64,000 nucleotides of DNA from Bdellovibrionales bacterium (GTDB lineage: Bacteria > Bdellovibrionota > Bdellovibrionia > Bdellovibrionales > CAYMLA01): the NCBI GenBank assembly GCA_965217115.1, contig OZ244239.1, positions 582,392 through 646,391 of the forward strand, in the 5' to 3' direction. The position numbers and the translations under genes are program-made. The notes under the pieces were generated by a model. The model was given only the letters and a program-made list of their open reading frames with translations, was not told the DNA's origin and made no database searches. Positions 12,750 through 42,270 of the stretch are shown here, in pieces. Numbering within the stretch: position 1 is the first letter of the stretch; each line of letters begins with the position of its first letter.

Positions 12750-12765
12750 TGGCAGTCATCTTGCT
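12750..12765 (+). promoter_or_regulatory. Sigma-54 (-24/-12) promoter candidate TGGCAG-N5-TTGCT
   Basis: It matches the consensus TGGCAC-N5-TTGCW with one mismatch and correct GG/GC spacing. It lies about 55 nt upstream of ATG 12820. Confidence 0.55.
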
Positions 12766-12819
12766 TTAAATAGCACTGATAAGCTGAATTTTTATTCACA
12801 AAACTGTAGGGTTACCGCT

Positions 12820-13830
12820 ATGAGATTTCTTATATATTTTGTGTGTGTGGTGTTAACATTGAAGGTTGACGCAAACTCAGAACTAATAATTAGTAAAAAC
12901 TGTTCTGCCATTTTTTCTAGAACTAAATTAAATATTAATAATAAGGGAGCATCTCAGCAATTTGTAGAGTCCTTAAGGAAGGCACTCTTAGAAGTAAATA
13001 ATAACTTGGATCCATTAAAACAACCTGTAGGATATCGAATTGATCTCTACAAGGCTATTAAACACACGAGTAATTATAATGGCCCATTAAATCAGTTTGG
13101 AGTAATTAGGTCGTCTGAATATTATTCAGTCATAACTAAATCAGGAAAAATGCACTCTGTTCACCCTGAGTACAGTAAGGCAATTGCTGTACATGAATAT
13201 GGGCATGAAGTTTTTGCGCAAAATATTGGGCAATATATCACAAATACGAGGGTACAAGAATTTTTCAAAGGGCGCGAATTAATATTTAAAAATCAGCAAC
13301 AAACTAGTGTACTGAGGCAAAAAATTGAAAAATTGAAAAGAGCTGGTCTTAATAATGAAGAGATTATTGAGCATCCATACTTTGTAGAATTTGTAAAAAG
13401 ACGTGACTTAATAGACAAAGGGTTAAATGCTTATTCTATAAATGAGAAACAGAAGAATATTATTATTTCTTACGATGAATTATTTGCAGATGTAATAGCA
13501 GTTATCGGTACAAATAGACCTAGAGCGGTCTATCGTGCAAACAATGCAGGAGGAAGAGGCCATACTGGTAGAGACTTTACAGCACATACACCATTAAGAA
13601 GTTGGAAGGGTGCCTCTTTGCATGAAATGTTTTCCCCTACTAGGTCACATTTATGGAAACAGTATTTGTCCCATCCAAAATTTCAGTATGAGAAACCTAA
13701 GATATTAGAGGCTTTACTAAGAGCTATTGGTAAGGAAATTGATTTTTATACTTCTATTAAATTTGTAGATTTACCACATGAAAAAAACGCCAGATTAATT
13801 GACGCTTTTGGTAGGGAATTTGAACACTAG
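12820..13830 (+). CDS. Secreted putative zinc metallopeptidase (HExxH)
   Basis: It has a signal peptide, HEYGHE at codons 125-130 (nt 13192-13209) and a downstream ELFAD (ExxxD, gluzincin-like third-ligand motif). The family is not identified. Confidence 0.55.
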   Translation: MRFLIYFVCVVLTLKVDANSELIISKNCSAIFSRTKLNINNKGASQQFVESLRKALLEVNNNLDPLKQPVGYRIDLYKAIKHTSNYNGPLNQFGVIRSSEYYSVITKSGKMHSVHPEYSKAIAVHEYGHEVFAQNIGQYITNTRVQEFFKGRELIFKNQQQTSVLRQKIEKLKRAGLNNEEIIEHPYFVEFVKRRDLIDKGLNAYSINEKQKNIIISYDELFADVIAVIGTNRPRAVYRANNAGGRGHTGRDFTAHTPLRSWKGASLHEMFSPTRSHLWKQYLSHPKFQYEKPKILEALLRAIGKEIDFYTSIKFVDLPHEKNARLIDAFGREFEH

Positions 13831-13861
13831 GTAGATGACCAAATATCTGCCCAAAAAGACA
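13825..13861 (+). repeat. Gene-terminal repeat, truncated copy C (first 37 nt only)
   Basis: CACTAGGTAGATGACCAAATATCTGCCCAAAAAGACA. The TAG stop of the metallopeptidase ORF lies inside the repeat. Confidence 0.8.
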
Positions 13862-13955
13862 GATCGTCTCCACTCCATCCCTTTTAAAGGCAACCCTCAG
13901 AAAAATTGAAAAATTTACATCACTCGATGAATTTCCCCTTAAAGACATTGACATC

Positions 13956-13964
13956 TGTTATAAT
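13956..13964 (+). promoter_or_regulatory. Extended -10 promoter candidate TGTTATAAT
   Basis: A TGnTATAAT match lies about 90-160 nt upstream of the first paralog gene. There is no properly spaced -35. Confidence 0.3.
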
Positions 13965-14119
13965 GGTTCAAAAGTTTAAACTGAATAAAAAACTTTAACC
14001 CTACTAATTTAATTTCTTAGATTAACAGTGCATACTAAAGAAGGAGAATTATGATGAGAAAAATAGGACAAAACGAAAATGGCTCGGCGACCCTTGTCAC
14101 ATTAATGGAGAAATTATCT

Positions 14120-14731
14120 ATGAAAACATTAATTCTAATTATGGCAATATTTGTGTCTGCTCAGGCATCTGCTAATGCCCAAGTATTAACTCAGATTGTG
14201 AAGAACATAACTGGTTTGACGAGCACGGCTGGCAAGACTTCAAGGATTCAAAAAAAGGTTCTCAAAGAGTTTCTAGACCGACAGGTCATAAAAACTACCG
14301 ATGACTTTGGACGCATATCAGAAGTGAAATTTCACCAGACACTAGACGTTAAAAATCTTGAGCTTACAATGACTTCTCTAAAACCCCGTAAAAGAGCTGG
14401 AGGTCCAGATTGGACGATAAAAATCAATCATGTGGACTCTCTAGTTGAAGGGTTTAAAAAAGCAGACATTGATCGGTTGATAAAAAACTTTCTTAAAAGC
14501 AAAGGCTTAAAAGGGACACAAGTAAAAAATTCCAATCTCACAGACGTGAAGCATATGAACTATGGTATGCTCAATTATAAATTAAGCTCGCGCGCAAATG
14601 ATTCTTTTATAGAGATTGAATTAATCGATGTTAGCAGGATGTACAACCACGGGGATGTTATTGCTGGGCTTTTAGAGAAAATATCCACTAAATATCTTAA
14701 TTTTTCAAACTCAGCAGCGGCGTTGCTCTAA
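14120..14731 (+). CDS. Secreted protein of unknown function, paralog 1
   Basis: MKTLILIMAIFVSAQASANA signal peptide. The conserved GGAG lies 7 nt upstream of ATG 14120. A longer alternative start at 14051 has an AAGGAG RBS. It is homologous along its whole length to the next gene. Confidence 0.65.
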   Translation: MKTLILIMAIFVSAQASANAQVLTQIVKNITGLTSTAGKTSRIQKKVLKEFLDRQVIKTTDDFGRISEVKFHQTLDVKNLELTMTSLKPRKRAGGPDWTIKINHVDSLVEGFKKADIDRLIKNFLKSKGLKGTQVKNSNLTDVKHMNYGMLNYKLSSRANDSFIEIELIDVSRMYNHGDVIAGLLEKISTKYLNFSNSAAALL

Positions 14732-14765
14732 AGAAATTTTATAGCTAATGTCATTAAAAAGAAGG

Positions 14766-14801
14766 CAGACATTAAACCTGAGTATATGTCTGTGTCTTTT
14801 T
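14766..14801 (+). terminator. Rho-independent terminator candidate
   Basis: CAGACAT-N13-ATGTCTG stem followed by TGTCTTTTT, about 35 nt after the paralog 1 stop. Confidence 0.4.
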
Positions 14802-14936
14802 AACGAGGTAAATAATTGATCCCCAGCCGACAAGGCGAGAAGACCATGGCGGGGTCACTTTGCAGCGCCTAAAATGGCACCTGTCTCAAATATCTACAGC
14901 CAAAAGGCCTTAACTCTCTTAAGTGGCATTCTAACA

Positions 14937-14952
14937 TGGCACTCGTATTGCT
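14937..14952 (+). promoter_or_regulatory. Sigma-54 (-24/-12) promoter candidate TGGCAC-N5-TTGCT (perfect core match)
   Basis: TGGCACTCGTATTGCT lies about 50-65 nt upstream of the ATGs of paralog 2. Additional TGGCA boxes are at 14873 and 14924. Confidence 0.6.
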
Positions 14953-15015
14953 CTAATAGTGGAGTGAAATGACGTGAAGTCATTGGAAATAAATCAAACG
15001 ATGGAGAAAATATCT

Positions 15016-15609
15016 ATGAAAACATTAATTCTAATTATGGCAATCTTTGTATCTGCTCAGGCATCTGCTAATGCCCAAGTATTCACTCAGATTGTGAAGA
15101 GCACGATTGCAAGTCCAAGGATTCAAAAAAGGGCTACCCAACAGTTTCTAGACCGACAAATAATAGACATTGTCGATAACTTTGCAGGCATATTATTAAA
15201 AGTGGATTTTCACAAAACACTAGGCGTTAAAAATCTTGAGCTTACAATGCTTTCTCTAAAAGACTATAAAAAAGGTGCCGCTTCAGAATGGAAGATACAA
15301 ATCAAGCATGTGGACTCTCTGGTTGAAGGCTTTAAAAGAGCAGACATTGATCGGTTGATAGAAGATTTTTTTAAAAGCAAAGGTTTAAAATGGACACTCA
15401 TTAAATTTCCCAATAACATAATCGAGAAACATATAGACTCTGGCATGCTCAAATATAGCTTCAGCTCGTCCACCAATGACTCTGTTATAAATATTCGATT
15501 AATCAATGTTAGCTCGCAAGACGCCTACCAAACTATTATTACTGAACTCTTACAGAAAATATCCACTAAATATCTTAATTTTTCAAACTCAGCAGCGGCG
15601 TTGCTCTAA
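15016..15609 (+). CDS. Secreted protein of unknown function, paralog 2
   Basis: It has the same signal peptide and an identical C-terminal KISTKYLNFSNSAAALL as paralog 1. The ORF track starts at GTG 14974. Confidence 0.65.
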   Translation: MKTLILIMAIFVSAQASANAQVFTQIVKSTIASPRIQKRATQQFLDRQIIDIVDNFAGILLKVDFHKTLGVKNLELTMLSLKDYKKGAASEWKIQIKHVDSLVEGFKRADIDRLIEDFFKSKGLKWTLIKFPNNIIEKHIDSGMLKYSFSSSTNDSVINIRLINVSSQDAYQTIITELLQKISTKYLNFSNSAAALL

Positions 15610-15632
15610 TCCAAAAAGTGGAGAGATTAAAT

Positions 15633-17141
15633 ATGCGTCGTTATTCATCTGCTCTCTGGCTTTTTTCTTTGTTTCAAATATTTTTGGTTGGAAACACTTA
15701 CGCCGATCAAGTATCTTTAGATCAAAAAATTGATTTCTTAATTCGTCAAAAATCCTTTTTTACATTACTGAAAAATGTCAATCATCAGCATCTCTCCCGT
15801 TATCAAAAATGCCTTCAGAATCCAGAAGAGGATTTTACCATTACAGTTATCGGGGAAAATGCTCAAATGAAAGATTACACTCGTCCATGCAAGAAATTGA
15901 TCAAAATTCGTTTTAGAAGGTCCTTTCGGCTACACTACGAAAAAATGAGACTCTACCTTGCATTGAGCAAAACAAGGTACAGAGAATCCCCAGAAATAAT
16001 GTCTCAATCCAATAATATTGATCATAAACTCAATAGAGATATCTCACACCCATCATTTCTTGCCTACTTAGGGTTTAACTATCAACCTATGGATTTATCT
16101 CCTTTATCTGAAAGTGAAACGCGTAAAGCTCTAGATATGTACAGTCAAGACACAAAAGATTTTTGCATAAAATATAAAGAAAACCATTTGGATAAGAGAT
16201 TATATTTTCTAAAAAATGAAACTGATAAAAAACACTTAAAAGAACGGTTTTGTGAAGAATCTCTATTAAAAATCAGCAAAAACCTTGGCCATACAAAATT
16301 CGAAAGAGCCTCGAATCAATTAAATCTAGAGCAATTAAATAGAGATTACCATCGTTCAATAGAATATAACCGAGACAAACTAAGGGCTACATACAAGGGG
16401 CTCTATGAACAAACTATTTCAAAATACCCACTTCTGATATATGGAAAAACAGCTCACCCCACCAACAGGGAGTTATTAGATATTCTAGAGAAAATATCGA
16501 TGCACAATACTGCATTTAATATTAAGGTTGAAGATTATATCGTTGAAAATAACTTAGAGACTGAGATTAATAGTTTTCGCCAAGGCTTGCATAGTCCTAA
16601 GGAAAAAGAGGCCTTATTCGAAAACCTCCTTTTCTTTTTAAAAGAGGGTATTTTTAATGCCTATATGACTAAATACACACTGAACTCCCAGGATTCAGAG
16701 AAAATAAAAGAACTCGTTAAAGAGAAGAAAGAAACCATACAAAGAACAAATATGTTTAAGAGCCTGGGGCTTTTATCAGTTGCCCTTGGTAGTTGCTTTT
16801 TGCCTATTGGAAAAATTATTAAAGTGGCTCAAGTGGCTAAATATATAAAATTAGGTTGCTTTGTCTCTCTTGGAATACCGTTAAATCTATATTTTTTAAA
16901 CATCGCTTATCATGACTTTAATGACGGCTTGTCAGATGTCTTTTCCTCCCCTGATGGAGAGTATATTTTTGGTGATTTTCAACAACTCTCTAGCCATTAT
17001 CAAATGATTGTTTTAAATACGCTTCTGCTTGGTGTTGGGATTGGTCCCATCAAAGAATTTGTCTCTATAACCAAACAGGCGGCCATCCTTAGAAACCCTC
17101 TAAGAGAGAAGAAAAAAAACCTTGATAGATACCTCAATTGA
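15633..17141 (+). CDS. Hypothetical protein with N-terminal signal peptide and C-terminal TM helices (about 502 aa)
   Basis: ATG 15633 has a GGAGA RBS. The body is long and K/E/N-rich and probably helical, with 2-3 hydrophobic helices near the C-terminus. No family was recognised. Confidence 0.6.
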   Translation: MRRYSSALWLFSLFQIFLVGNTYADQVSLDQKIDFLIRQKSFFTLLKNVNHQHLSRYQKCLQNPEEDFTITVIGENAQMKDYTRPCKKLIKIRFRRSFRLHYEKMRLYLALSKTRYRESPEIMSQSNNIDHKLNRDISHPSFLAYLGFNYQPMDLSPLSESETRKALDMYSQDTKDFCIKYKENHLDKRLYFLKNETDKKHLKERFCEESLLKISKNLGHTKFERASNQLNLEQLNRDYHRSIEYNRDKLRATYKGLYEQTISKYPLLIYGKTAHPTNRELLDILEKISMHNTAFNIKVEDYIVENNLETEINSFRQGLHSPKEKEALFENLLFFLKEGIFNAYMTKYTLNSQDSEKIKELVKEKKETIQRTNMFKSLGLLSVALGSCFLPIGKIIKVAQVAKYIKLGCFVSLGIPLNLYFLNIAYHDFNDGLSDVFSSPDGEYIFGDFQQLSSHYQMIVLNTLLLGVGIGPIKEFVSITKQAAILRNPLREKKKNLDRYLN

Positions 17142-17199
17142 ATGAAATACTATGACAGCCTTGATGGATGCGCTAGTTATTAACTACGAGGGGATCTAA

Positions 17200-18414
17200 A
17201 TGAAAAAAATATTGAATGTGTTTGTAATCTTAATCACCCCTTTGTTCAGCGCCCTACTTACCTCTGCAAGTGACCATGTCGATGGACCTGTCACTAAGGA
17301 GCATCGTGTCGCCGATATTAGTGACTTCTATGTCTTTCAATCACCTGGGAACAAGAACAACACAACCATCATAATGAACACCTATCCGTTTGTAGGGAAA
17401 TCTGGGCATTTCTCAAATAAGGTGACATATGAGATTCATATCATTAACCTCAATATTAATAAATCAACGGGGATTTTTGATAAAAAAGAAAAAGCTAAGA
17501 TCGTGTGTGAATCAGTCACCCCACATTCTTCTCGTGAAGATCACTCCCTCTCTAAAATAACTTGTACCGATACGAAGGGAAACAAATCAATCGCCACCCT
17601 CAATGCTAGCCCAAAAAGTAATTTCAATAATCATAAAAATAATCATTTCCCTATTTTTGCAGGTAGAAGGCTTGATCCATTCTTTATCGATACCAAGTGG
17701 GCCACAGAAACAAACAATAGTGGAAAAATTAGCCCCTCTTCTGGAGGTGACAATGACATAGAAGATTTAAATGTCCTTAGCATTGCAATTGACATTAACT
17801 TAAAAGATCTCTTTGGTCATACTTCGTCAAAAATCTATGGCTTCTATGTAGAGTCACTAACACAAGACTCCCCTGGATCTGTAAAGAGAATCCTCGACAG
17901 AGTCGGGCGGGCAGAGATAACAAACTTCGCCATAAACCAAAAAACAGTTCCAGATATTAGAGACTCCTATAACCAAACCGATACTCTTAATATTCCACCG
18001 AGAAAGAAGAAAGAAATCCTTGATAGACTCCTCAATCAGATAAAATACTATGACAACCTTGATGGATACACTGACTGGAGTAAGAGCGAGCAACAACATC
18101 TTGCGAATATTTTTATAGATGATTTTCTTGTCATTGACCTGTCAAAACCCTGTTCTGGTAACGGCTTCTTGGAGATAGAGAAATCACTCATTGCAGGGAG
18201 GCCCCACGAAACATGTGGAGGAAGAAAGCTCACTGACGATATTGTTGATCGTATTTATACATATTATATATCCAAGGATAGAAAAGAATATGGCGACTCT
18301 GTTAATACCCCATCCAAATCTTTTGGAAAAAGCTTTCCCTACCTAAACACGCCAGCAACAGGAGTCTGGGCTTGGATAAAAGCTAAATTTGCATACAAAA
18401 AAGCAAACTTTTAA
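17200..18414 (+). CDS. Secreted DUF4331-like protein
   Basis: A signal peptide is followed by SDHVDGP...VADISDFYVFQSP, resembling the SSHREAP...D.TD.YAF.SP N-terminus of DUF4331 proteins. GAGGGG RBS. Confidence 0.55.
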   Translation: MKKILNVFVILITPLFSALLTSASDHVDGPVTKEHRVADISDFYVFQSPGNKNNTTIIMNTYPFVGKSGHFSNKVTYEIHIINLNINKSTGIFDKKEKAKIVCESVTPHSSREDHSLSKITCTDTKGNKSIATLNASPKSNFNNHKNNHFPIFAGRRLDPFFIDTKWATETNNSGKISPSSGGDNDIEDLNVLSIAIDINLKDLFGHTSSKIYGFYVESLTQDSPGSVKRILDRVGRAEITNFAINQKTVPDIRDSYNQTDTLNIPPRKKKEILDRLLNQIKYYDNLDGYTDWSKSEQQHLANIFIDDFLVIDLSKPCSGNGFLEIEKSLIAGRPHETCGGRKLTDDIVDRIYTYYISKDRKEYGDSVNTPSKSFGKSFPYLNTPATGVWAWIKAKFAYKKANF

Positions 18415-18436
18415 AAATAATTTAAACAATGACTAA

Positions 18437-19699
18437 CTACGACCTTCCATCACGAATCGCCAGGGACGGCCGCAACCCACTCAAACTACGGGCAGGTAAC
18501 CAAGCACTCATAAAGGCCAGCACTACAGATACCAAGAAAACTATACTCACTAAAAACAAATCCACTCGCACGGGAATTTGGGAATCGTAATAAATCCCTG
18601 GAAGCACATTAAGAGGATAGGTCTTCAACAACCAAATGGCTAAAAAAGAAGAGATCATTCCCCCAATGATACCGAGCAATGACAGAAGAAAACCCATTCT
18701 GCCAAATATCTTCGTCACCATCGCAGATGACATTCCAAGGGCCATCAACACCCCGATCTCTTGCTTTTTTTGTGAAACAAGTAACAACATCACTGTAATA
18801 ACACTACATACAGCCATCAAACCACTCAAACATAAAAACAGCCCTATGACCAACTTCTCCAGTTTCAGTGCAAAAAACAATGCCGCATTACGATCTTTCC
18901 AAGATTCTACAATCGCCCCCGGCATTTGTAATAATGCTTCTGTCTCTTCTAACAAATTCATATCATCCAACCACAACTCCACCCCTAAATAACGACTGGG
19001 AGATTCTTTAAACACATGAAGAGCCTTACCTAATTGATAAAAAATAAATTTACTATCCACATCTGACACATTCGTCGTGATGATTTTTCTCACCACCACC
19101 TTCTCTAATCGAGGGACTTCCCCTGAGGGAAGTAACAGTGCCTCAGGAGGTATGACTGTCAATGTATCTCCTTCCAACACCCCCAATCTCTGTGCCAAAT
19201 CAACACCTATCACAACCTCCCCTGCCTCTAAAGGAAAATTGTCTTCCTCCTCCCACAAGGCTTCTTCCCCCTGATTCTTTTGTCGCAATTGTTGAAGGCG
19301 TGAAAACATTTTTTCTAAAGACCTTCCCTTTAACCCTCTAGCCATAGCTCCACGGTAAGCGCCATCAATCGTTCTAAGAATAATATCCTGATTTTCAAAA
19401 ATAGAAAATTGAACTCCCTGCAAAGATTTTACTTTTTTGTAAAAAGAGCTCTCTTCGAGTTTTTTTAAATCATTCGAATCACTCGACCTAATGATCAAAT
19501 GAGGTTCTACTGATAGAATACGCTCCCTAATATTATCATTAAACCCATTCATTATACTCAACACTAGAACAAAACTAAAAACTCCCATAGCAATACCCAA
19601 AACACTCAGGCGAGCAATAACCTTTACCAAAGATCCTGAACGTTTAGAAAAGATGTATCGAGAAAAATAGACCCAACTAAGCATGATCAATAGGCCCAC
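18437..19699 (-). CDS. LolC/LolE-family (FtsX/MacB-type) lipoprotein-release ABC permease
   Basis: N-terminal TM, a periplasmic MacB-like domain and a C-terminal FtsX-like 3-TM bundle. FSRYIFSKRSG...ISVLGIAMGV is typical of the LolC/E N-terminus. An alternative ATG is at 19684. No adjacent LolD ATPase. Confidence 0.8.
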   Translation of the reverse strand: MGLLIMLSWVYFSRYIFSKRSGSLVKVIARLSVLGIAMGVFSFVLVLSIMNGFNDNIRERILSVEPHLIIRSSDSNDLKKLEESSFYKKVKSLQGVQFSIFENQDIILRTIDGAYRGAMARGLKGRSLEKMFSRLQQLRQKNQGEEALWEEEDNFPLEAGEVVIGVDLAQRLGVLEGDTLTVIPPEALLLPSGEVPRLEKVVVRKIITTNVSDVDSKFIFYQLGKALHVFKESPSRYLGVELWLDDMNLLEETEALLQMPGAIVESWKDRNAALFFALKLEKLVIGLFLCLSGLMAVCSVITVMLLLVSQKKQEIGVLMALGMSSAMVTKIFGRMGFLLSLLGIIGGMISSFLAIWLLKTYPLNVLPGIYYDSQIPVRVDLFLVSIVFLVSVVLAFMSAWLPARSLSGLRPSLAIRDGRS

Positions 19700-20268: not shown

Positions 20269-20270
20269 GT

Positions 20271-20657: not shown

Positions 20658-20863
20658 TGAATTCTCCTCTCTCTATCCTACAGTTTGATATCCCATTGAG
20701 AATAAATCCTCTCCTACAAAAAGACAACCTCACATTTATTATCCTGAAGGTCTGGGACAATTTACTTCATAACATCGATTTTCCCACCGATTTTTCTATT
20801 TGACACTCTCAAATTTTATAAGAAAGATCTAAGACTCTATCTCTGTTTTCAAAGGAGCATGAA

Positions 20864-21262: not shown

Positions 21263-21318
21263 AATTGATTCCATCGACTCTCTAAATAAAATGATTCTAA
21301 AACTCCCCCCACACGCTC

Positions 21319-23828: not shown

Positions 23829-23861
23829 GCAGAGAGCTTACCTAATACAACCCCCACTAGC

Positions 23862-23897
23862 AAAAAAAAAGTTCATCCACTAAAGTAGTAGATGAAC
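23862..23897 (-). terminator. Rho-independent terminator of the two-lipoprotein operon
   Basis: The minus strand reads GTTCATC-N13-GATGAAC followed by T9. Confidence 0.6.
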
Positions 23898-23922
23898 TTA
23901 TATGAATTAGAAAGCACTCAGA

Positions 23923-23964: not shown

Positions 23965-24642
23965 TTAGTAAGTCACTATCACTAATCCAGGATTACAGAC
24001 TTGCCCATTGACCGTTTCCACCAAAAAGGGCGCGGCATTTATTCTGTATTCATAATCTAATTTTACGTTACCGTTAGAATCAATTCCGCTATAACTACCT
24101 GGTCCAAGAATGTTCATGCTCATCCTGATACGAGCAGTGTTGTTACTAGAGCGTCCACGGGCTTCCATAACGATCGTGTTGTCTCCATGTTTTCCTGACC
24201 ATTGACCCGCTTGAATTGTTTCAAGATCGTATTCACCTTGAGGTAGAAGACAAGTCTCAGGCGTCACATAATTAATAGAGAGGTAGCCACGTACGCCAAA
24301 TGTTCCTATGTTATTAGGCACGACTCCTATATGGTGATCTGCGATTTCCTGAGTTCCCATATTCTCGTATGAACCATTCTGTGCAATAAGACCCACAGAC
24401 ATCGTTCCAATATCATTCCATCCGATAGCTACTTTTCCTGTAGCATCTGCGAAAAGACCTTTTGTATTTAAAGGCAGACATCCTGAAGATGTGCAACTTG
24501 ATCCGTTTCCAGAACGTATTACGTTGCCACTATCATCCTTTTTAGAGCAGCCCACTGTGAATCCAGCTAAGGAGACAACTAGGCCAACTATAATAGATAG
24601 GTTCTGCCATTTTCTTTTTTTGTACACAGATAAAAATTTCAT
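23965..24642 (-). CDS. Lipoprotein of unknown function
   Basis: ATG 24642 follows a GGAGGGAG RBS. Lipobox FTVGC. No family was recognised. Confidence 0.65.
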   Translation of the reverse strand: MKFLSVYKKRKWQNLSIIVGLVVSLAGFTVGCSKKDDSGNVIRSGNGSSCTSSGCLPLNTKGLFADATGKVAIGWNDIGTMSVGLIAQNGSYENMGTQEIADHHIGVVPNNIGTFGVRGYLSINYVTPETCLLPQGEYDLETIQAGQWSGKHGDNTIVMEARGRSSNNTARIRMSMNILGPGSYSGIDSNGNVKLDYEYRINAAPFLVETVNGQVCNPGLVIVTY

Positions 24643-24657
24643 TTTTACTCCCTCCAA

Positions 24658-25401
24658 TTAATTTAATTTAAATGCTTGGTTTAAGCTTAAGTTTCTAAAT
24701 TCACCCAGGAGAGTGTATCCTCCCTCTGGAGTTATTCTATTTTCATCATCATAACCAGCCCCACAGCTGTAAGGACCTCTAGTGACAAACCAACATTTCG
24801 TCGGTGATGGCGGCGCATACACGTTCCCAAAGTTCTTGTAATAAATTCTTCCGTTCACATCATCGTCTGGACCCAAACCATCACCTAAATCAATGACATC
24901 ATCAATAATAACAATCACAGACCCGTACTCATCTTGAAACATCGCTCGAAACATAGTTTTACCGTCTAGAGTTAACCATTTATTGTACTTGTTCTCTTTT
25001 TGCCCATCATATTTATTATATCTAACGTCAATTATTTCAGATCCAGTGCTTTGAGAACTCTGATGAAAAACCCCATCATCATAATAAGAGATACTTACAT
25101 TTCCTTTATAGAGATCACTCTCTTCATCCCTCTCAAGACTTAAGCGAATTTTATACTCGCCAGGATTGTTAAGTGGTCGCTCATAGACATAGTCTTCCAT
25201 CGTACGTGCTTTCTCATGATCTGTTGAACCTGCAGGAAAGAAGTTCGCGACCCCACCCGACAGACCATCATCAAATTGACCTGTTGGTGCTCCAGGAACT
25301 GTTCCATAGGCTGGGGAATTGTCACCAACATCAACCTGCTTCTTAGCACAGCCTCCAAGCCATAATGACAGAACACTTAGTATAATAATTAACGCCCTCA
25401 T
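24658..25401 (-). CDS. Lipoprotein of unknown function
   Basis: AGGAGGAG RBS and lipobox LGGC. The mature protein is D/G/Y-rich. No family was recognised. Confidence 0.65.
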   Translation of the reverse strand: MRALIIILSVLSLWLGGCAKKQVDVGDNSPAYGTVPGAPTGQFDDGLSGGVANFFPAGSTDHEKARTMEDYVYERPLNNPGEYKIRLSLERDEESDLYKGNVSISYYDDGVFHQSSQSTGSEIIDVRYNKYDGQKENKYNKWLTLDGKTMFRAMFQDEYGSVIVIIDDVIDLGDGLGPDDDVNGRIYYKNFGNVYAPPSPTKCWFVTRGPYSCGAGYDDENRITPEGGYTLLGEFRNLSLNQAFKLN

Positions 25402-25454
25402 GATCTCCTCCTAATATCCACCCCCTCAATAAGGAGGTTTCTTGTCTTAAGCTA

Positions 25455-25471
25455 TTGCCAAGCGTGTGCCT
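25455..25471 (-). promoter_or_regulatory. Sigma-54 (-24/-12) promoter candidate AGGCAC-N5-TGGCA
   Basis: The minus strand reads AGGCACACGCTTGGCAA. GG and GC are correctly spaced and the -12 box is imperfect. It lies about 55 nt upstream of ATG 25401. Confidence 0.4.
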
Positions 25472-25514: not shown

Positions 25515-25540
25515 TAAAAAACTGTCTGATTTTGAGACAG
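25515..25540 (-). terminator. Rho-independent terminator candidate downstream of the LOG-family gene
   Basis: The minus strand reads CTGTCT-N7-AGACAG followed by T6-7. An alternative pairing partner is at 25548-25554. Confidence 0.4.
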
Positions 25541-25588
25541 AAAAATCCTGTCTAAAAAATGATTGTAAACCAAAAAATGTCACTTTTA

Positions 25589-29556: not shown

Positions 29557-29564
29557 CTTTCTAT

Positions 29565-31364: not shown

Positions 31365-31748
31365 ATGAAAAAGGGGCTTAAGGTTCTTCTCGCCGAAGAT
31401 GACCAGAATATTTTTGAAATTCTCTCCCTCTCTCTAAATCATATAGGAGGACACAGTGTTAGCAAGGCCAGTAACGGCGAACAAGCATTATCAATGGCTC
31501 TCAGTGAAAATTTTGACCTTCTCCTCCTAGATGGAATGATGCCAAAAAAAGATGGCGTCACTGTCTGTCGCGAGTACATTGCACAAAAGAAAAATCCTGC
31601 TCCTGTTATTTTTCTCAGTGCTAGATCCTCTCAGCAAGATATCCAATTAGGACTAGAGTCTGGGGCTATTGGTTACATTGCCAAGCCCTTTGACCCCACA
31701 ACCATTTGTCAGGATATCTCCAACATCCTCTCCAAGCCACGGTTGTAG
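31365..31748 (+). CDS. Single-domain response regulator (CheY-like receiver)
   Basis: VLLAEDD, the LLLDGMMP phospho-acceptor Asp region and the YIAKPF Lys. Confidence 0.88.
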   Translation: MKKGLKVLLAEDDQNIFEILSLSLNHIGGHSVSKASNGEQALSMALSENFDLLLLDGMMPKKDGVTVCREYIAQKKNPAPVIFLSARSSQQDIQLGLESGAIGYIAKPFDPTTICQDISNILSKPRL

Positions 31749-31750
31749 CC

Positions 31751-33103: not shown

Positions 33104-33459
33104 ATTCAAGTCATCCCATGAAACAACTACAAGAAGACTACCTTAAATCTCTCCCTGAAAAAATAGTTCAACTTCAACACGCAAAAATGAATAAAGACTG
33201 GGAAGTTCTCCAAAATGACTTTCACAAGTTAAAGGGCTCTGGAAAAACATACGGCTTTCCACAAATTACAGATATTGCCCAGATTGTCGAACAAATACTT
33301 GAATTAGAAAAAAACCCCGATAAGCTTTCAGTGATTTCTCAAAAAGGCATAGAACTCTTAGACAAGATTGCTAAGAATGATGTCGGTTTTGACCTTGTAT
33401 CCGATGTTGAGTTTCAAGAATTACTTAAGTTTTATGAAGAACTTTCATCAAATAAATAA
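33100..33459 (+). CDS. Hpt (histidine phosphotransfer) domain protein
   Basis: HKLKGSGKTYGF (HxxKG) motif; overlaps the HK stop by ATGA. Confidence 0.75.
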   Translation: MNSSHPMKQLQEDYLKSLPEKIVQLQHAKMNKDWEVLQNDFHKLKGSGKTYGFPQITDIAQIVEQILELEKNPDKLSVISQKGIELLDKIAKNDVGFDLVSDVEFQELLKFYEELSSNK

Positions 33460-33476
33460 AAAACCACCACCGACGA

Positions 33477-34637: not shown

Positions 34638-34704
34638 AAAAAACTTCCTTTACTATTAAACGATAACAAGCTAATCACTTAAAAAATTTTACCTAAATCT
34701 CCAT

Positions 34705-35904: not shown

Positions 35905-36010
35905 ATCATCTCCCTTTCCATTAAAAAATTCTTCTAAAAATTAGCAAAGTCCATGGAAATAAGTTAGCATTAATTCTTTATTTGTAACCATTTATTTTTC
36001 CGAGGTTTTT

Positions 36011-37357
36011 TTGGCCTTTAATCTACTCATTGTAGATGATGATCCTCTTGTGCAACAATCCATAGATATGATTGTCAAAGACCCGTGGAAGTTCCATGGG
36101 GCCTCCTGTTTAAAATCTATTCCTTCAGGAACCACTCTTCACGCCGCCTTTGTCGATATGCACTTGAGTGATGATCTGGAACAAACGGAGGGCCTACAAG
36201 TCCTATCTGCTTTGAGAAAAACCCACCCTCATATAGAGCTTATTGCCATCTCTGGAGATCTTAATCAAAAGCTCATGGAAAACGGATTAAAATGCGGTGC
36301 TTCTAAATTTCTGGCAAAACCCCTCAGCCCAGAAGAAGTTCTTCTCACATTAGAAAAAATCGAAGCTCATTATTTGCTGCAAAACACCATTTCGCAGAAT
36401 TTTCTTCATTATAAACACTCACACGCTGTGTGGATTGGCTCCAGTGCTTCTTCGCTGAAAATTCGCCATCAAGTGTCACAACTCAAGGGAGAGACAGCGC
36501 CCATTCTTATTCACGGAGAAACAGGAACTGGTAAAGAAGTTGTCTCACAAATGTTAGGCACTCAAGAGTCAGGACCTTTTATTCAAGTTAATATCGCCTC
36601 CTTGCCAGAGAACCTTTTTGAAAGTGAGATCTTTGGCCATATCAAGGGATCATTTACTGGTGCCAATCAAAATAAAATTGGCCTTGCCGAAGCCGCTCAC
36701 AACGGAACTTTACTTCTTGATGAGATCGAAGCCCTGCCGACACATCTGCAAGTAAAACTTCTACGCTTTCTCGAATCAGGTGAAATAAAAAGAATTGGTA
36801 GCACCACTGCAATACATCTCAACGTGCGAGTGATTACCACCACCAACGAAAATTTAGACAGCAAGGTCAGTGATGGAAGCTTCCGCGAAGACCTCCTGTG
36901 GAGAATAAAAAGTCATCTCATAGAACTCCCACCATTGAGAGATAGAAAAGAAGATATCAAGGAGCTTGCCCAATATTTTCTCAAAAAAGAACGGCCCCAT
37001 CGCAATAAGAGCTTCACCGAAGAAGGTATTGAGTCTCTACAAGATCACCCGTGGCCAGGGAATGTTCGCGAACTCAAGCGCGTCTGTGAACAACTCAGTC
37101 TCCACTCACCTCTACCCATTATACGAGAAGAAGATATTAAGCATCTTTTACAACCTTCTCCTAATCATCAAGACCTTCCTAAATGGGAACAACTGGATTT
37201 CAGCAAAGGCCTTTCCCATTTAGTCAATCAATACGAAGCAAAACTGATTAGAATTACGATGCAACAAGATAAAAACATCGATAATGTCACTAAAAAATTG
37301 CAAATCTCCCGCTCTAGCCTTTATAAAAAGTTAAAGGATTATGATATTAGTAAATAA
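36011..37357 (+). CDS. Sigma-54-dependent response regulator (NtrC-family enhancer-binding protein)
   Basis: Receiver domain (VDDD...VDMHL...KPL), AAA+ GETGTGKE, the GSFTGA sigma-54 contact loop, ELPPLRDR, and a C-terminal Fis-type HTH. TTG start after GAGG. Confidence 0.88.
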   Translation: MAFNLLIVDDDPLVQQSIDMIVKDPWKFHGASCLKSIPSGTTLHAAFVDMHLSDDLEQTEGLQVLSALRKTHPHIELIAISGDLNQKLMENGLKCGASKFLAKPLSPEEVLLTLEKIEAHYLLQNTISQNFLHYKHSHAVWIGSSASSLKIRHQVSQLKGETAPILIHGETGTGKEVVSQMLGTQESGPFIQVNIASLPENLFESEIFGHIKGSFTGANQNKIGLAEAAHNGTLLLDEIEALPTHLQVKLLRFLESGEIKRIGSTTAIHLNVRVITTTNENLDSKVSDGSFREDLLWRIKSHLIELPPLRDRKEDIKELAQYFLKKERPHRNKSFTEEGIESLQDHPWPGNVRELKRVCEQLSLHSPLPIIREEDIKHLLQPSPNHQDLPKWEQLDFSKGLSHLVNQYEAKLIRITMQQDKNIDNVTKKLQISRSSLYKKLKDYDISK

Positions 37358-37371
37358 CTAAGGTAATAATT

Positions 37372-38304
37372 ATGATGACTGAATTTATTTCGCAAAGCTT
37401 TTGGCAAGACCCGCTCTACAGACAGATTTTTATCATTGCTCTCTCATCTTTATTTATTACTAGTGTCCCTGTTTATTTTTTTCGGCAAAGAAATCACTAT
37501 TTAAAAATGGCTTGGTGGAGTGTCAAGAGTTGGCTCTTAGCCGCGCCTATTATGTTATTTGTTTTAGGCGCTCCTAAACCATGGCCCCTTGTTTTTCTCA
37601 CTATCACTGCCATCTTTGGAACTAAAGCATTCTTTAAAATTATGGGCATCTATCACAAAACACCTTTTGTGATCACTTCTTATTTAGGTATTATTGCCCT
37701 TGCATTCGCCACTCATTTCGAGCGCACGGACCTTTATAATCTTATACCTATGGTTGTACTCGGAGTTTTATGTTTCATTCCTATTTTTCTTAATTCCTAT
37801 AAAAGCATGGTTCAATATATAGCTCTGACACTCATGGCATTTATCTTTCTGGGTTGGTCCTTTATGCACTTGGGACTTATTCTTAATTTAGAGAATGGTC
37901 TTTATCAGCTACTCTATCTTATTCTTCTCACTGAATTCTGTGACAATACAAACCTGGCGATGGCACGTTATTTCTCTAAACCTAAGCGTCTTGATCAAGT
38001 CATGATTAGAAGGACCTACGGTAGCACTCTCTTTTCAGCCGTTCTCACCTTGGCATTGGCCTTTGCCATGCGACATCTTCTCCCTGTTAGTTCAGAAATC
38101 TTCTGGCTTACGGCCGGGCTTGTCTCTTCTCTTGCTGGTAGTTTTGGGGATATTATTTTAAACGTTGTTCGACGTGACATTGGTATCAAAGTCGTTGGAG
38201 CCTTTGTTCTCGGTCGAGGAGATTTTTTAAGCCGCATTGACCGTCTTATTTTCGTTGCACCTATTTATTATTATCTCATGATCTATCTCCATAAAATAAT
38301 TTAA
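37372..38304 (+). CDS. Divergent CdsA-family (CTP_transf_1) integral membrane protein
   Basis: About 8 TM segments. The C-terminal GSFGD...RRDIGIK..G....GRGDFLSRIDR parallels the CdsA signature S..KR..G.KD.G...PGHGG..DR.D, but key residues differ. Confidence 0.45.
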   Translation: MMTEFISQSFWQDPLYRQIFIIALSSLFITSVPVYFFRQRNHYLKMAWWSVKSWLLAAPIMLFVLGAPKPWPLVFLTITAIFGTKAFFKIMGIYHKTPFVITSYLGIIALAFATHFERTDLYNLIPMVVLGVLCFIPIFLNSYKSMVQYIALTLMAFIFLGWSFMHLGLILNLENGLYQLLYLILLTEFCDNTNLAMARYFSKPKRLDQVMIRRTYGSTLFSAVLTLALAFAMRHLLPVSSEIFWLTAGLVSSLAGSFGDIILNVVRRDIGIKVVGAFVLGRGDFLSRIDRLIFVAPIYYYLMIYLHKII

Positions 38305-38331
38305 AGGACTTACTTTAGAAGGACTCTAGTT

Positions 38332-39054
38332 GTGAAGAAATGGAATTATGACAATGATCAGTGGACCAAACTGCCCTCTCATCTGAAACACCTACCTTTG
38401 TTCACACGACATATTGACCTGATGAGTATCTTTATACGCATGTGCTGGGCCTTTCTCTTGAGAGGAATTATTTTCCGTTATTTTATTCGTTTAAAAGTAA
38501 TTGGTCATTACAAAGATATATACAAATCCCATCCCCGTCTTCTTGTTATCTCTAACCATTCAAGCCATTTGGATGCGGCGGCAATCACTGCTTCTATGCC
38601 TATGAGCTATTGGTTACATCTTTACATTGCTGCAGCTAAGGATTATTTTTTCTCTAATTTTCTTTTTACTTTTTTTTCAGCCCATTGCCTTGGGGCTATC
38701 CCCATAGATCGTAAAGATAAAAAAGGCGAGGCAATCAAATTATGCACCTCTCTACTCAAAGACCTTGATCGTATTTGGCTTATTATTTTTCCTGAAGGAA
38801 CTCGCTCAAAAGATGGTTACATCCATGATTTTAAAAAAGGTCTCTCTCTCTTCTCCAGAACAACAAACACGCCTATTTTGTTCTTGTATCTAGACGAAGC
38901 TCATAAACTTTTCCCTAAAGGACAAAGATTACCCAAACCAGGAAAACTCTCTATCCACGTAGGCCCTGTCTGTCCTCCTGGTGATATCGAAGGGATCCAG
39001 AAAGCCTACAAGGATTGGGTCGCCACTATTAATCCACAGGCCTACAAAGAATAG
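38332..39054 (+). CDS. Lysophospholipid (1-acyl-sn-glycerol-3-phosphate) acyltransferase family
   Basis: NHSSHLD (HX4D) and FPEGTRS motifs. Confidence 0.8.
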   Translation: MKKWNYDNDQWTKLPSHLKHLPLFTRHIDLMSIFIRMCWAFLLRGIIFRYFIRLKVIGHYKDIYKSHPRLLVISNHSSHLDAAAITASMPMSYWLHLYIAAAKDYFFSNFLFTFFSAHCLGAIPIDRKDKKGEAIKLCTSLLKDLDRIWLIIFPEGTRSKDGYIHDFKKGLSLFSRTTNTPILFLYLDEAHKLFPKGQRLPKPGKLSIHVGPVCPPGDIEGIQKAYKDWVATINPQAYKE

Positions 39055-39175
39055 TCTCTCTTATCTCAATGGAGTACCTACATACTCAGTTCTGCTTAAA
39101 AGCTTCCATTTAAAGAGATAATTCAATAAACCTTACTGACAGCAGAGTTGTATCTGTGGTAGTTTCTGCGACGAT

Positions 39176-40990
39176 ATGGACGGAAAAATCATTCCTAATA
39201 ATTTTGTCATTGATATAGCTACTACCAACGGAAGTGGTAGCCAATCGTCGAATAATATTCTTGTGAAAAGTCTCTTTCGTATGGGTCTGCCAGTGGGAGG
39301 GAAGAATCTATTTCCTTCTAATATCCAAGGGCTTCCCACTTGGTTCACCATCAGAGTCAGTGACAAAGGGTACACTGGCCACTCTCTAGCCATTGATATG
39401 AAAATAGCTATGAATGCCACCACCATTTACAAAGACATTCAAACCGTTAAACCCAAGGGGGTTTTTCTTTACAACAAAGACCTGAAGTTCGACGATAGCC
39501 AACTCAGAGATGACACCATCAATATTGGTCTGCCCTTCCGAAAAATCGTCTCAGATGTCACAAAATCCATTCAACTTAAGAAGCTACTGACAAATATGGT
39601 TTATGTAGGAGCCTTAGGACAACTGCTCAAAATGGATTTAGATATTCTATGCAAAACTGTTTCCGATCAATTCGCTGGTAAGACCGATGTGATTAAAATC
39701 AATATCAATGCACTCAAGGCTGGTTGGGATTACACCAAAAATCATGTTACCTTTGACATTCCCTACAAAATTACGCCTCTAAAGAACACTCAATTAAATG
39801 CAGGGAAAATTCTTATCGATGGCAACACGGCGGCTGGATTGGGACTGACCTATGCTGGTTGTACTTTTGCCGCTTGGTATCCTATCACCCCGAGCAGTTC
39901 TCTGATGGAAAGTTTTTCCAATTATGCAAGTGACCTGCGCTTAGACAGTGAAGGTAAAAAGAACTTTGCTATTGTTCAAGCTGAAGACGAACTGGCTTCC
40001 ATCGCTATGGTCGCAGGGGCTGGTTGGGCTGGAGCCAGAGCCGTGACGGCGACATCTGGTCCTGGATTAAGTTTGATGGCTGAGACAGCGGGGCTCTGCT
40101 ATTTTGCCGAGATTCCCGCAGTGATATGGGATGTGCAACGGGCTGGCCCATCCACAGGACTGCCTACGCGAACAATGCAATGTGATGTTTCTTCGGCCGT
40201 AACACTCTCCCATGGAGACACCAAACATCCTGTCATTATTCCTGGAACTCCCACTGAATGTTTTGAATTTGCTCAAACAAGCCTTGATTTAGCTGAAAGA
40301 CTACAAACTCTTATCATCGTTCTCTCCGATCTCGATTTAGGAATGAATTTACATATCACCCATGATTTTGATTTTCCTAAAAATCCAATGGATCGAGGAA
40401 AGGTTTTAAAAAAAGAAGATTTAGATAATATGACTGAGTTTGCACGTTACCGCGATCTTGACGGAGACGGTATAGCTCACCGAACACTCCCTGGGACTGA
40501 GAATGATCTTGCTGCCTATTTCACCCGTGGAACAGGACATGATGAATTCAGTAAATACACCGAAGACAGCACAATCTTTCAAAACACTCTAGACCGCTTG
40601 GCTCTTAAATGGCAGACAGCCAAAAGCATTATGCCTAAGCCTGTGATTGACGACGAAGAAAATGAAGTTGGTCTTATTGCCTATGGATCTTCTGGCTCTG
40701 TTATGACAGAAACACGGGATCTCTTAAAACAAAATAACAACCTGTCTACGGACTACCTAAGATTGCGAGCCATTCCATTTAGCAATGAAGTCCATGAGTT
40801 TATCAAATCACACAAAACTCTCATTGTTATCGATCAAAATCGTAACGGTCAAATGCGTAACCTCCTACAACTCGCCTACCCTGATTCTGCGAATAAACTT
40901 TTGTCTATTTGTCACTATGATGGCTTAATGCTAGATGCTGATTTTCTTGTTCACAACATCTCACTTATTAATCAGAAATTAGAGGTTTAG
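39176..40990 (+). CDS. korA: 2-oxoacid:ferredoxin oxidoreductase, alpha (fused gamma-alpha) subunit
   Basis: The N-terminal gamma-like domain (GSGSQS.N) is followed by the PFOR alpha core (YPITPSS, QAEDE.A). Confidence 0.85.
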   Translation: MDGKIIPNNFVIDIATTNGSGSQSSNNILVKSLFRMGLPVGGKNLFPSNIQGLPTWFTIRVSDKGYTGHSLAIDMKIAMNATTIYKDIQTVKPKGVFLYNKDLKFDDSQLRDDTINIGLPFRKIVSDVTKSIQLKKLLTNMVYVGALGQLLKMDLDILCKTVSDQFAGKTDVIKININALKAGWDYTKNHVTFDIPYKITPLKNTQLNAGKILIDGNTAAGLGLTYAGCTFAAWYPITPSSSLMESFSNYASDLRLDSEGKKNFAIVQAEDELASIAMVAGAGWAGARAVTATSGPGLSLMAETAGLCYFAEIPAVIWDVQRAGPSTGLPTRTMQCDVSSAVTLSHGDTKHPVIIPGTPTECFEFAQTSLDLAERLQTLIIVLSDLDLGMNLHITHDFDFPKNPMDRGKVLKKEDLDNMTEFARYRDLDGDGIAHRTLPGTENDLAAYFTRGTGHDEFSKYTEDSTIFQNTLDRLALKWQTAKSIMPKPVIDDEENEVGLIAYGSSGSVMTETRDLLKQNNNLSTDYLRLRAIPFSNEVHEFIKSHKTLIVIDQNRNGQMRNLLQLAYPDSANKLLSICHYDGLMLDADFLVHNISLINQKLEV

Positions 40991-40994
40991 AAAA

Positions 40995-42008
40995 ATGACG
41001 ACGTCGGGTTATACTAAGGAAGATTATAAAGGTGGTAAGTCAACTCTTTGTACTGGCTGTGGACATGACAGTATTACCACGCAGATTATTAATGCTTATT
41101 CTAAATCAGATATTAATCCTTATATGGTTGCAAAAGTCTCAGGAATTGGTTGTTCCTCTAAAACTCCCGCTTATTTTCTAAAAAAATCCCATGGCTTTAA
41201 CTCTCTCCATGGACGTATGGCCCCTGTTGCTACAGGTGCCAAACTCGCCAATCATCAGCTTCAGATACTTGGAATCTCTGGAGATGGAGACACGGCCAGT
41301 ATTGGCGTGGGCGGCTTTACTCATATCATACGCCGTAATCTACCTATGGTTTATATTATTGAAAATAACGGGGTTTATGGTCTTACAAAAGGACAATTCT
41401 CTGCCACTGCTGATAAATCTTCCACGCTGAAAGCAGGAGACTTAAATCCATTTGCAAATATTGATCTATGCACGTTAGCACTTAATCTTGGAGCCACTTT
41501 TGTTGGACGATCTTTTTCGGGTGACTCCAAGCAACTTGTTCCCATGATTCAAGCGGCAATTGCCCATAAAGGAACGGCCATTCTTGATATCATTTCGCCT
41601 TGCGTGACTTTCAACAATCACAAAGGCAGCACCAAAAGCTACGACTTCATCAAAGAGACCACAACAGCCTTTCAACAACTGGGATTTGTACCCTCCTTTG
41701 AAGAAAAATCTGTGGATTACAAAGAAGGCTCCACTCAAGAAGTGGAAATGCACGATGGTTCTACACTCACTCTACGCAAGCTGATGACAGAAGAACTTGA
41801 TCTACAAAAACCGTTGTCAGCCCTCAAATTGATTGAACAATATAAATCTCAGGGACAGATCCTCACCGGAGTATTTCATATCAATACAAATAAGAAAGAT
41901 CTTATCGCTATTTTTGATTTAACGAACAGGCCTTTAGTTAGTCTTGAACAAAAGGATTTACAGCCTACCGAAGAGAGTTTGCAAAAAATTTTGACAGTTT
42001 TCCGTTAA
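40995..42008 (+). CDS. korB: 2-oxoacid:ferredoxin oxidoreductase, beta (TPP-binding) subunit
   Basis: CTGCGH, the GDGD TPP motif and NNGVYGLTKGQ. Confidence 0.88.
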   Translation: MTTSGYTKEDYKGGKSTLCTGCGHDSITTQIINAYSKSDINPYMVAKVSGIGCSSKTPAYFLKKSHGFNSLHGRMAPVATGAKLANHQLQILGISGDGDTASIGVGGFTHIIRRNLPMVYIIENNGVYGLTKGQFSATADKSSTLKAGDLNPFANIDLCTLALNLGATFVGRSFSGDSKQLVPMIQAAIAHKGTAILDIISPCVTFNNHKGSTKSYDFIKETTTAFQQLGFVPSFEEKSVDYKEGSTQEVEMHDGSTLTLRKLMTEELDLQKPLSALKLIEQYKSQGQILTGVFHINTNKKDLIAIFDLTNRPLVSLEQKDLQPTEESLQKILTVFR

Positions 42009-42254
42009 TTCCAATAGAATAATATTGCTTTATAATCAAAAGCTAATAGCGTCTCTTTTCCCTCGGCGGTGCAACTCTTTTAGCAAAAGAATTCTAGCCG
42101 TTGGTCTAGCTTGAAAACTTTGATATTCTTAAAAAAATCGCTTACTCTTTATACAGAGAAATGGGTTGGTCGGTTTTTGTAAGTTCTAACTCTCTCTCTC
42201 ACATAGGAGTTGAGTTATTTTCGCAAGTTAGACGTATCTTAAAAAAGGAAAAAC

Positions 42255-42270
42255 TGGCCCATATCTTGCC
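42255..42270 (+). promoter_or_regulatory. Sigma-54 (-24/-12) promoter candidate TGGCCC-N5-TTGCC
   Basis: GG/GC spacing is correct with one mismatch in the -24 box. It lies about 80 nt upstream of ATG 42350. Confidence 0.5.

Follow-up and report, generated by a model that had tools for sequence, protein, structure and literature searches.

The subject of this analysis is a 64,000-nucleotide (nt) stretch of DNA from a Bdellovibrionales bacterium (GenBank assembly GCA_965217115.1, contig OZ244239.1, positions 582,392 to 646,391 of the forward strand), referred to below as the window. It has a GC content of ~39%, belongs to a contig of 2,170,531 bp, and codes for proteins that are singletons in a collection of 15 billion proteins. 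Within the window, four short elements resemble the -24/-12 promoters that serve sigma-54 (RpoN), an alternative sigma factor, and each precedes a gene or a group of genes for exported proteins, which we number as units 1 to 4. All positions are those of the window, protein lengths are in amino acids (aa), and scores in bits come from the weighted scan described below. The elements and the units behind them are the following:

12750..12765, plus strand: site 1, -24/-12 element TGGCAGTCATCTTGCT; one mismatch, 15.1 bits, 54 nt to the ATG at 12820
12820..13830, plus strand: unit 1, secreted 336-aa protein with a HEYGH motif, a possible Zn peptidase
14937..14952, plus strand: site 2, -24/-12 element TGGCACTCGTATTGCT; perfect with 0 mismatches, 16.4 bits, 63 nt to the ATG at 15016
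15016..18414, plus strand: unit 2, three genes, predicted to form a single transcript
15016-15609, plus strand: unit 2, secreted 197-aa orphan paralogue
15618-17141, plus strand: unit 2, 507-aa signal-peptide protein with C-terminal hydrophobic segments
17200-18414, plus strand: unit 2, third gene, secreted DUF4331 protein
25456..25471, minus strand: site 3, -24/-12 element AGGCACACGCTTGGCA; two mismatches, 12.5 bits, 54 nt to the ATG at 25401 (minus strand)
23965..25401, minus strand: unit 3, predicted operon of two lipoproteins, one of 247 aa with an LGGC lipobox and one of 230 aa with a TVGC lipobox
42255..42270, plus strand: site 4, -24/-12 element TGGCCCATATCTTGCC; two mismatches, 13.4 bits, 79 nt to the ATG at 42350
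42350..43405, plus strand: unit 4, 351-aa lipoprotein with an LSGC lipobox (Cys22) and an integrin-beta-I-like vWA/MIDAS domain with a DDSFS motif

The four elements are all intergenic and oriented toward the gene that follows, with the start codon 54-79 nt downstream. The GG-N10-GC core is present in each of them (4/4) together with TGGCAC and TTGCW flanks, and the mismatches listed above were counted against TGGCAC-N5-TTGCW. An earlier note on this DNA had pointed out four sigma-54-type matches, had placed them 55-80 nt ahead of start codons, and had described the ribosome binding site (RBS) before every start as strong. All four matches were re-located, that of site 3 at 25456-25471 on the minus strand, and the measured spacings of 54, 63, 54 and 79 nt agree with the earlier range. 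The first gene behind site 2 is listed as an open reading frame (ORF) that begins earlier, at GTG 14974; the ATG at 15016 was used for its gap. The statement on the RBS stands for sites 2-4 (GGAG, AGGAGGAG and AGGAGG) and fails for site 1, where the RBS (AGGG) is weak.

A search with a loose consensus that tolerates up to two mismatches returned 31 matches in the window against 24.4 expected, which is no enrichment; this count is uninformative as a test, and a weighted matrix was applied to both strands in its place. The matrix frequencies approximate the consensus of Barrios et al. 1999, reportedly YTGGCACG-N4-TTGCW. Sites 1-4 are four of the five top-scoring matches in the window. Among its 41 oriented upstream regions, the four highest scores, 16.4, 15.1, 13.4 and 12.5 bits, are those of the sites; the best of the rest is 6.6, and shuffled upstream regions are expected to give 0.09 matches of at least 12.5 bits. 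Because of these outlying scores and the low expectation from shuffles, the observation of the four elements is real and non-random. The oriented upstream regions make up 4.2% of strand positions, yet they hold four of the five best matches. The remaining one is an intragenic match at 55471-55487 on the minus strand (TTGGCACGGCTCGGGCT, 15.9 bits), whose -24 half is perfect and whose -12 half (GGGCT) is poor; it lies on the same strand as its host gene, the next start is 350 nt away, and it is probably due to chance. A FliA-type promoter (TTAAG-N16-CCGATA) was also considered as an alternative for the four units, and none was found in a search at each of them.

All products encoded behind the sites appear to be exported on visual inspection of their N-termini and hydropathy: a signal peptide or a lipobox is present in 7/7. 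About 10 of the 41 genes with an upstream region code for exported proteins, and the four sites all fall on such genes (hypergeometric P ~0.002, calculated by hand). Two statements of the earlier note are thereby borne out, namely that every downstream product has an export signal and that no comparable match precedes the housekeeping genes, none of whose upstream regions among the 41 scanned exceeds 6.6 bits compared with 12.5-16.4 at the sites. Its further statement that the products have no assigned function needs correction for two of them, the product of site 4, which is a relative of MIDAS/vWA adhesins, and the DUF4331 protein. We also scored ~160 upstream regions of low-GC related loci (identified here by L numbers). 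Beyond the two query families, there were two matches of at least 12 bits, both in locus L106 and both ahead of signal-peptide proteins, and none of the ~160 regions had such a match before a cytoplasmic protein.

Comparative support exists for sites 3 and 4. Sites 1 and 2, both near-perfect matches, are without it, because the product of site 1 has one homologue and that of site 2 has none. For site 3, three distinct homologues of the 247-aa lipoprotein were found, and a -24/-12 element is present in 3/3 orthologous loci (L019, L020-22 and L023), 53-64 nt from the ATG:

L019: TCGGCACATCCTTGGCA
L020-22: TAGGCATCCCCTTCGCA
L023: TCGGCACAGGCTTCGCA

When the four site-3 spacers are aligned, only GGCA, CTT and GCA are invariant besides the RBS and the ATG, and the second lipoprotein gene as well as the downstream XerD/YifB synteny are retained in L019 and L020. 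Judged by this alignment, site 3, the lowest of the four by score, has the best footprinting support. Its inferred 5' leader (25402-25455, minus strand) also contains a stem-loop CCTCC..GGGGG that was seen by eye in the alignment, as were GAGGCTCT..AGAGCTTC in the orthologous leader of L020 and GGAGA..TCTCC in that of L023. A leader hairpin may be conserved downstream of site 3 with different sequences.

For site 4, 21 homologues of the 351-aa lipoprotein were found, and the element is present in five of six loci fetched via the protein homologues, with scores of 11.1-15.6 bits:

L016: ATGGCCCAATCGTTGCC
L018: AAGGCATCGGTCTTGCT
L105: TCGGCACTGGTCTTGCT
L106: TTGGCCCTGAGTTTGCA
L107: GGGGCACGGCAATTGCC

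Elements of the same type occur in the homologous loci L024, L027, L031, L032 and others. A metagenome scan with the alignment of the vWA family added 80 loci, and the family was counted over the 57 distinct loci that have a recognisable lipobox, using the 330 nt upstream of the Cys codon. In this set, 15/57 loci have a match of at least 11 bits compared with 1.2 expected from shuffles, and in the low-GC subset 11/34 do compared with 0.28 expected. The sites concentrate 72-129 nt ahead of the lipobox Cys codon. This fixed distance and the 15 loci with a match suggest that sigma-54 dependence is a recurrent trait of the vWA lipoprotein family, probably ancestral and with losses. Two loci of the family depart from the pattern in their own ways: at 2514-4000 of L017 the site is lost where an extra 398-aa gene is inserted upstream, and at 5950-6000 of L108, a seventh vWA-family locus, the -12 box is a variant with GT in place of GC (TTGGCCCTAATATTGTA).

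Unit 4 is predicted to be monocistronic because a terminator-like hairpin follows the vWA gene at 43424..43444 on the plus strand. The lipobox Cys of its product is invariant across the 21 members of the family, and within the motif D63-D-S65-F-S67 the residues D63, S65 and S67 are invariant columns of the 21-member alignment. The AlphaFold2 (AF2) model of the 351-aa protein has a predicted local distance difference test score (pLDDT) of 83.4 and places strands 42-62 and 280-329 on the flanks of an alpha/beta core. The best matches of a fold search of the PDB were headpieces of integrin beta subunits and SpaC, a pilus adhesin; when the vWA family was used as a profile against the PDB, the sequence matches were only marginal. 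The best NCBIfam match is NF052240, the Bdellovibrio 'MIDAS family adhesin' model, which is matched by 21/21 family members with a best E-value of 2.6e-38. Together with the Bacteriovorax origin of the sole homologue of the unit-1 product, this match suggests, short of proof, an organism of the Bdellovibrionota. Because the 351-aa protein scores 99.7 bits and does not reach the equivalog cut-off of 700, we regard it as a member of a related family and not as an orthologue or equivalog of Bd0875.

The protein shares several features with Bd0875 and Bd1483 of Bdellovibrio bacteriovorus: the lipobox Cys is at residue 22, the length is ~350 aa, and a D-x-S-x-S MIDAS motif lies near residues 63-67 (D66 in Bd0875), and the model suggests that, as in those proteins, the vWA domain is inserted in a small beta domain formed by the N- and C-termini (PMC11003981). 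Bd0875 is a prey-invasion adhesin, and bd0875 is induced ~3-fold on prey contact (Tyson et al. 2024, PMC11003981); that paper names no promoter or sigma factor for it. A second lipoprotein with a vWA/MIDAS segment is CglD (NF033765) of Myxococcus xanthus adventurous gliding motility, which gives a weak match in 10/21 members. CglD differs in its length of ~1100 aa and its many extra domains, and the match covers ~57 residues with 23.5 bits against a cut-off of 400.

Upstream of the -24/-12 elements, sites 2 and 3 share the 10-mer CTGTCTCAAA, the left arm of a palindrome of 19 bp, CTGT-N11-ACAG. The palindrome occurs four times in the 64-kb window compared with 0.61 expected, and three of the copies accompany sites 1-3, where they are candidate upstream activating sequences (UASs):

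12693..12711: palindrome CTGTTAACTTTTTAAACAG, candidate UAS that begins 57 nt ahead of the site-1 -24 element
14881..14899: palindrome CTGTCTCAAATATCTACAG, candidate UAS that begins 56 nt ahead of site 2
25522..25540: palindrome CTGTCTCAAAATCAGACAG in the minus-strand reading, candidate UAS that begins 69 nt ahead of site 3
13157-13175: fourth copy of the palindrome, within the site-1 gene
25570..25586, minus strand: a further conserved block AAAAGTGACATTTTTTG, ~100-115 nt ahead of site 3

Because sites 2 and 3 served to define the pattern, the copy at site 1 is an independent match, for which we estimated by hand a chance of ~0.004. Neither the 10-mer CTGTCTCAAA nor the 9-mer AAAGTGACA shows enrichment in the window by itself, in contrast to the gapped palindrome, and the looser pattern TGT-N11-ACA is not enriched either (15 compared with 13.9 expected in the window). 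With an assumed transcription start ~12 nt past the GC, the palindromes of sites 1, 2 and 3 are centred at about -74, -73 and -86. In the orthologues of site 3, the left half TGTCTCA of the palindrome is held at exactly -70, and the block AAAAGTGACATTTTTTG recurs as the same 17-mer in the orthologous locus L019 in a spacer that has otherwise diverged. The palindrome was also looked for at site 4 and at the promoters of the vWA family, and none was found. Since the palindrome is common to sites 1-3, most likely one enhancer-binding protein would co-activate units 1-3 through it; since site 4 lacks it, a second activator is likely, which would make at least two activator-specific modules.

Palindromes of the TGT-N10/11-ACA type are classic sites of NtrC-family activators, such as the NifA UAS, and the centres at -73 to -86 fall toward the promoter-proximal end of the distances usual for UASs. 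Likened to the NifA-type UAS (TGT-N10-ACA) and other palindromic sites of the NtrC family, the element described here agrees in its short TGT...ACA arms with an AT-rich spacer between them, in its place upstream of a -24/-12 promoter, and in being common to several promoters, as are the sites of one regulon. It differs in having a spacer of 11 nt and not 10, in its CTGT/ACAG arms, and in a centre that is nearer than the usual -100 to -150. The two matches in L106 (GCA_964653235.1, positions 3870-4206) are divergent -24/-12 sites, CTGGCACCTGATTTGCT with 19.0 bits and GTGGCATCCAAATTGCT with 15.3 bits, which precede secreted proteins of 81 aa and 111 aa. Each has an imperfect CTGT-N11-ACAG-like palindrome with one mismatch ~87 nt upstream.

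An activator of the required family is encoded in the window itself:

36011..37357, plus strand: NtrC-type sigma-54 activator with receiver, AAA+ (Sigma54_activat) and HTH_8 domains

It carries the Walker A sequence GETGTGK and the sigma-54 contact loop GSFTGA, and because such an activator is encoded here, the host organism is predicted to use sigma-54. Site 4 lies 4.9 kb downstream of it. Behind the activator gene come phospholipid genes that are CdsA-like and PlsC-like (together with it, 36011-39054), and a cluster of response regulator, histidine kinase and Hpt genes lies upstream at 31365-33459. In related organisms, rpoN has been assigned to bd0843 in Bdellovibrio (PMC3464611) and is carried by Bacteriovorax marinus (PMC3526173). 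In the searchable literature, only mentions of rpoN and no described sigma-54 regulon were found for Bdellovibrio-like organisms.

Taking the statistics, orientation, conservation and products together, we consider it probable that the four elements are functional sigma-54 promoters of exported-protein units, with units 1-3 forming one module and unit 4 belonging to a second. RNA polymerase with sigma-54 would sit on the four elements as a closed complex, and transcription would begin only once an upstream-bound AAA+ enhancer-binding protein hydrolyses ATP. Each promoter would then drive a self-contained unit that codes solely for exported proteins. On units 1-3, a single enhancer-binding protein would act through CTGT-N11-ACAG, and site 4 would be part of the second module, in which sigma-54 dependence may be ancestral to the adhesin family. 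The inducing signal is plausibly contact with a surface or with prey. A bolder version can be offered only tentatively: the activator that reads the palindrome would run, in an uncultivated Bdellovibrio-like bacterium with a small genome, a contact- or prey-triggered 'secreted arsenal' of lineage-specific secreted proteins and lipoproteins, and the Bd0875-like MIDAS adhesin family would be ancestrally sigma-54-dependent in several lineages, so that the invasion factors of predators would be off until signalled, apart from the FliA attack-phase programme.

Several points weigh against the proposal of sigma-54 promoters in two modules. The gene rpoN is not among the genes of the 64-kb window, and the scoring matrix approximates the Barrios consensus rather than deriving from a curated alignment. 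Site 1 is absent upstream of the sole homologue of its product (L104, Bacteriovorax sp. BSW11_IV, 40% identity), and for site 2 the paralogue family has no relatives outside the genome in an exhaustive search of 1.84 billion representative proteins. L017, the closest vWA relative and a syntenic one, is without a sigma-54 site. The related loci are a small sample that was fetched through exported-protein genes and is hence biased, and the evidence from the palindrome comes from three promoters of one window. At site 3, moreover, a T-run comes after the palindrome, which satisfies a weak terminator pattern and could instead be a weak terminator of the gene upstream.

With the promoters taken as real, their link to exported proteins could still be a sampling effect, with a regulon that also covers flagellar, metabolic and other cytoplasmic functions; we regard this as possible, at well below even chances. 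There are only four sites in 64 kb, and two of them lie in one low-GC island rich in exported-protein genes. The upstream elements fall into at least two classes, which suggests several activators, the activator of the window adjoins phospholipid genes, and sigma-54 together with FlrA is expected behind the flagellar genes of related predators (PMC13147790). Against this stand the low hypergeometric probability for four sites out of four on exported products and the related loci, where the two unselected strong matches again precede secreted proteins and cytoplasmic genes have none. The pattern also agrees with a published theme, the control of the bacterial exterior by sigma-54, which was proposed from a comparative study (Francke et al. 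2011, PMC3162934). The earlier note had spoken of a sigma-54 regulon dedicated to envelope or secreted factors. Of this reading, genuine sigma-54 promoters ahead of exported products are supported by the statistics, orientation and position of the elements, by the conservation of sites 3 and 4, by the encoded activator and by the exported products. 'Dedicated' is probably too strong for a single regulon viewed through 64 kb, because the palindrome at sites 1-3 and not at site 4 implies at least two activator modules, and because flagellar targets of sigma-54 and FlrA are expected (PMC13147790).

A similar degree of doubt attaches to the role of the palindrome. Instead of binding an activator, CTGT-N11-ACAG could be a terminator or attenuator hairpin for transcription from upstream, or the site of another DNA-binding protein such as an architectural protein or a repressor, an alternative that we consider possible but less likely than not. 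It would account for the terminator-like character of the site-3 copy with its TTTTTT, for arms of only 4-6 bp, and for the left half TGTCTCA being better kept than the right in orthologues, as fits an asymmetric site; the short distance from the promoters is in keeping with it too. The copies at sites 1 and 2, in contrast, have no T-run behind them, and all three start at similar offsets from the -24 element (57, 56 and 69 nt), of which the last differs by about one helical turn. The classic association of such palindromes with NtrC-family activators likewise speaks for a UAS.

It is very improbable that an unrelated DNA-binding protein has its operator in the conserved GGCA..N..TTGC block, or that this block is a leader RNA element. 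Such a reading would sit well with a window in which rpoN is not seen, but what is invariant is GG and GC at 10-nt spacing with canonical flanks, amid diverged spacers and in two unrelated gene families, and an activator with a sigma-54 contact loop is encoded in the same window. Least credible, and strongly disfavoured, is the suggestion that the four matches arose by chance and that transcription comes from ordinary sigma-70 promoters, for although the loose consensus is not enriched and weak sigma-70-like matches occur nearby (for example 12687-12714), the latter do not exceed shuffle expectation at the units, the sites are outliers in score, and sites 3 and 4 are kept across genomes at a fixed distance.

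The genes behind sites 1-3 deserve a fuller description. A homologue search with the 336-aa protein of unit 1 gave one match, in Bacteriovorax sp. BSW11_IV, which keeps the sequence HEYGHEVF, and the protein has no match in Pfam, NCBIfam or PDB sequences; the label 'metallopeptidase' is a guess that derives from the HEYGH motif. The three genes of unit 2 are probably co-transcribed, because the gaps between them are 8 and 58 nt and a convincing terminator is absent. The first of them is the second copy of a tandem pair of paralogues (14105-14731 and 15001-15609) with 79-95% DNA identity. The duplication begins ~15 nt before the ATG, and for this reason the -24/-12 promoter is found with copy 2 only; copy 1 (14105-14731) has a different, unclassified region ahead of it. 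Within the same unit, 17088-17174, which spans the 3' end of the 507-aa ORF and the spacer behind it, is 78% identical to 17986-18072 inside the DUF4331 gene, a likeness that looks like the remnant of a partial duplication or recombination. Unit 3 ends at a terminator-like hairpin:

23869..23899, minus strand: terminator-like hairpin with 14 pairs and a T-run

The AF2 model of its 247-aa lipoprotein, built from an alignment of four sequences, has a pLDDT of 41.

Sites 1 and 2 lie in a low-GC block at 10408-18414 with a GC content of ~0.36, compared with 0.39-0.44 elsewhere. The block begins at a tRNA-Arg(TCG) gene (10408-10484), codes for signal-peptide proteins only, with few or no homologues, and looks like a genomic island. 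A family of repeats is found in it at 11015-11108, 12046-12138 and 13825-13861, at or after the stops of three consecutive exported-protein genes. The repeat core is 37 nt (CACTAGGTAGMTGACCAAATATCTGCCCAAAAAGACA); two copies reach ~95 nt, are 97% identical over 77 nt, and include a hairpin GGGCCAG..CTGGCCC. The repeat could be a cassette boundary, an element like repetitive extragenic palindromes (REP) or miniature inverted-repeat transposable elements (MITE), or a 3' RNA element. An Rfam scan of the window found three tRNAs and nothing else. Immediately after the block, a LolE-like protein (18437-19699), used as a query in the contig search, returned only distant matches from Verrucomicrobiota and Acidobacteriota.

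The mechanism by which sigma-54 and its enhancer-binding proteins act is standard, and the present finding extends the exterior theme without overturning anything. As in known sigma-54 systems, a -24/-12 core, a palindrome at a UAS-like distance and an NtrC-type activator come together here, and envelope or secreted products are what the comparative study proposed for sigma-54 regulons at large (PMC3162934). The targets differ: a MIDAS adhesin and orphan secreted proteins specific to the lineage stand in place of the flagella, pili, exopolysaccharide, lipopolysaccharide or nitrogen genes that are usually listed. New are the particular targets, the sigma-54 element conserved in the MIDAS lipoprotein family, and the candidate palindrome shared by three of the promoters. 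Sigma-54 promoters are silent until an ATPase activator fires, and they therefore mark genes under strict signal-dependent control. Such promoters offer an entry point to orphan secreted proteins for which homology gives no annotation, and the palindrome is a handle on the activator and on its signal. The most useful leads are this palindrome and the proposed sigma-54 control of a family of predator adhesins. In Bdellovibrio, FliA is the known global attack-phase sigma factor, and one third of the promoters in the attack-phase promoter map have no identified motif (PMC3627812). The elements would add a sigma-54 layer in Bdellovibrio-like organisms beside FliA, the sole global promoter regulator of the attack phase described so far (PMC3627812), and they suggest a route by which the MIDAS adhesins of predators may be induced on prey contact.

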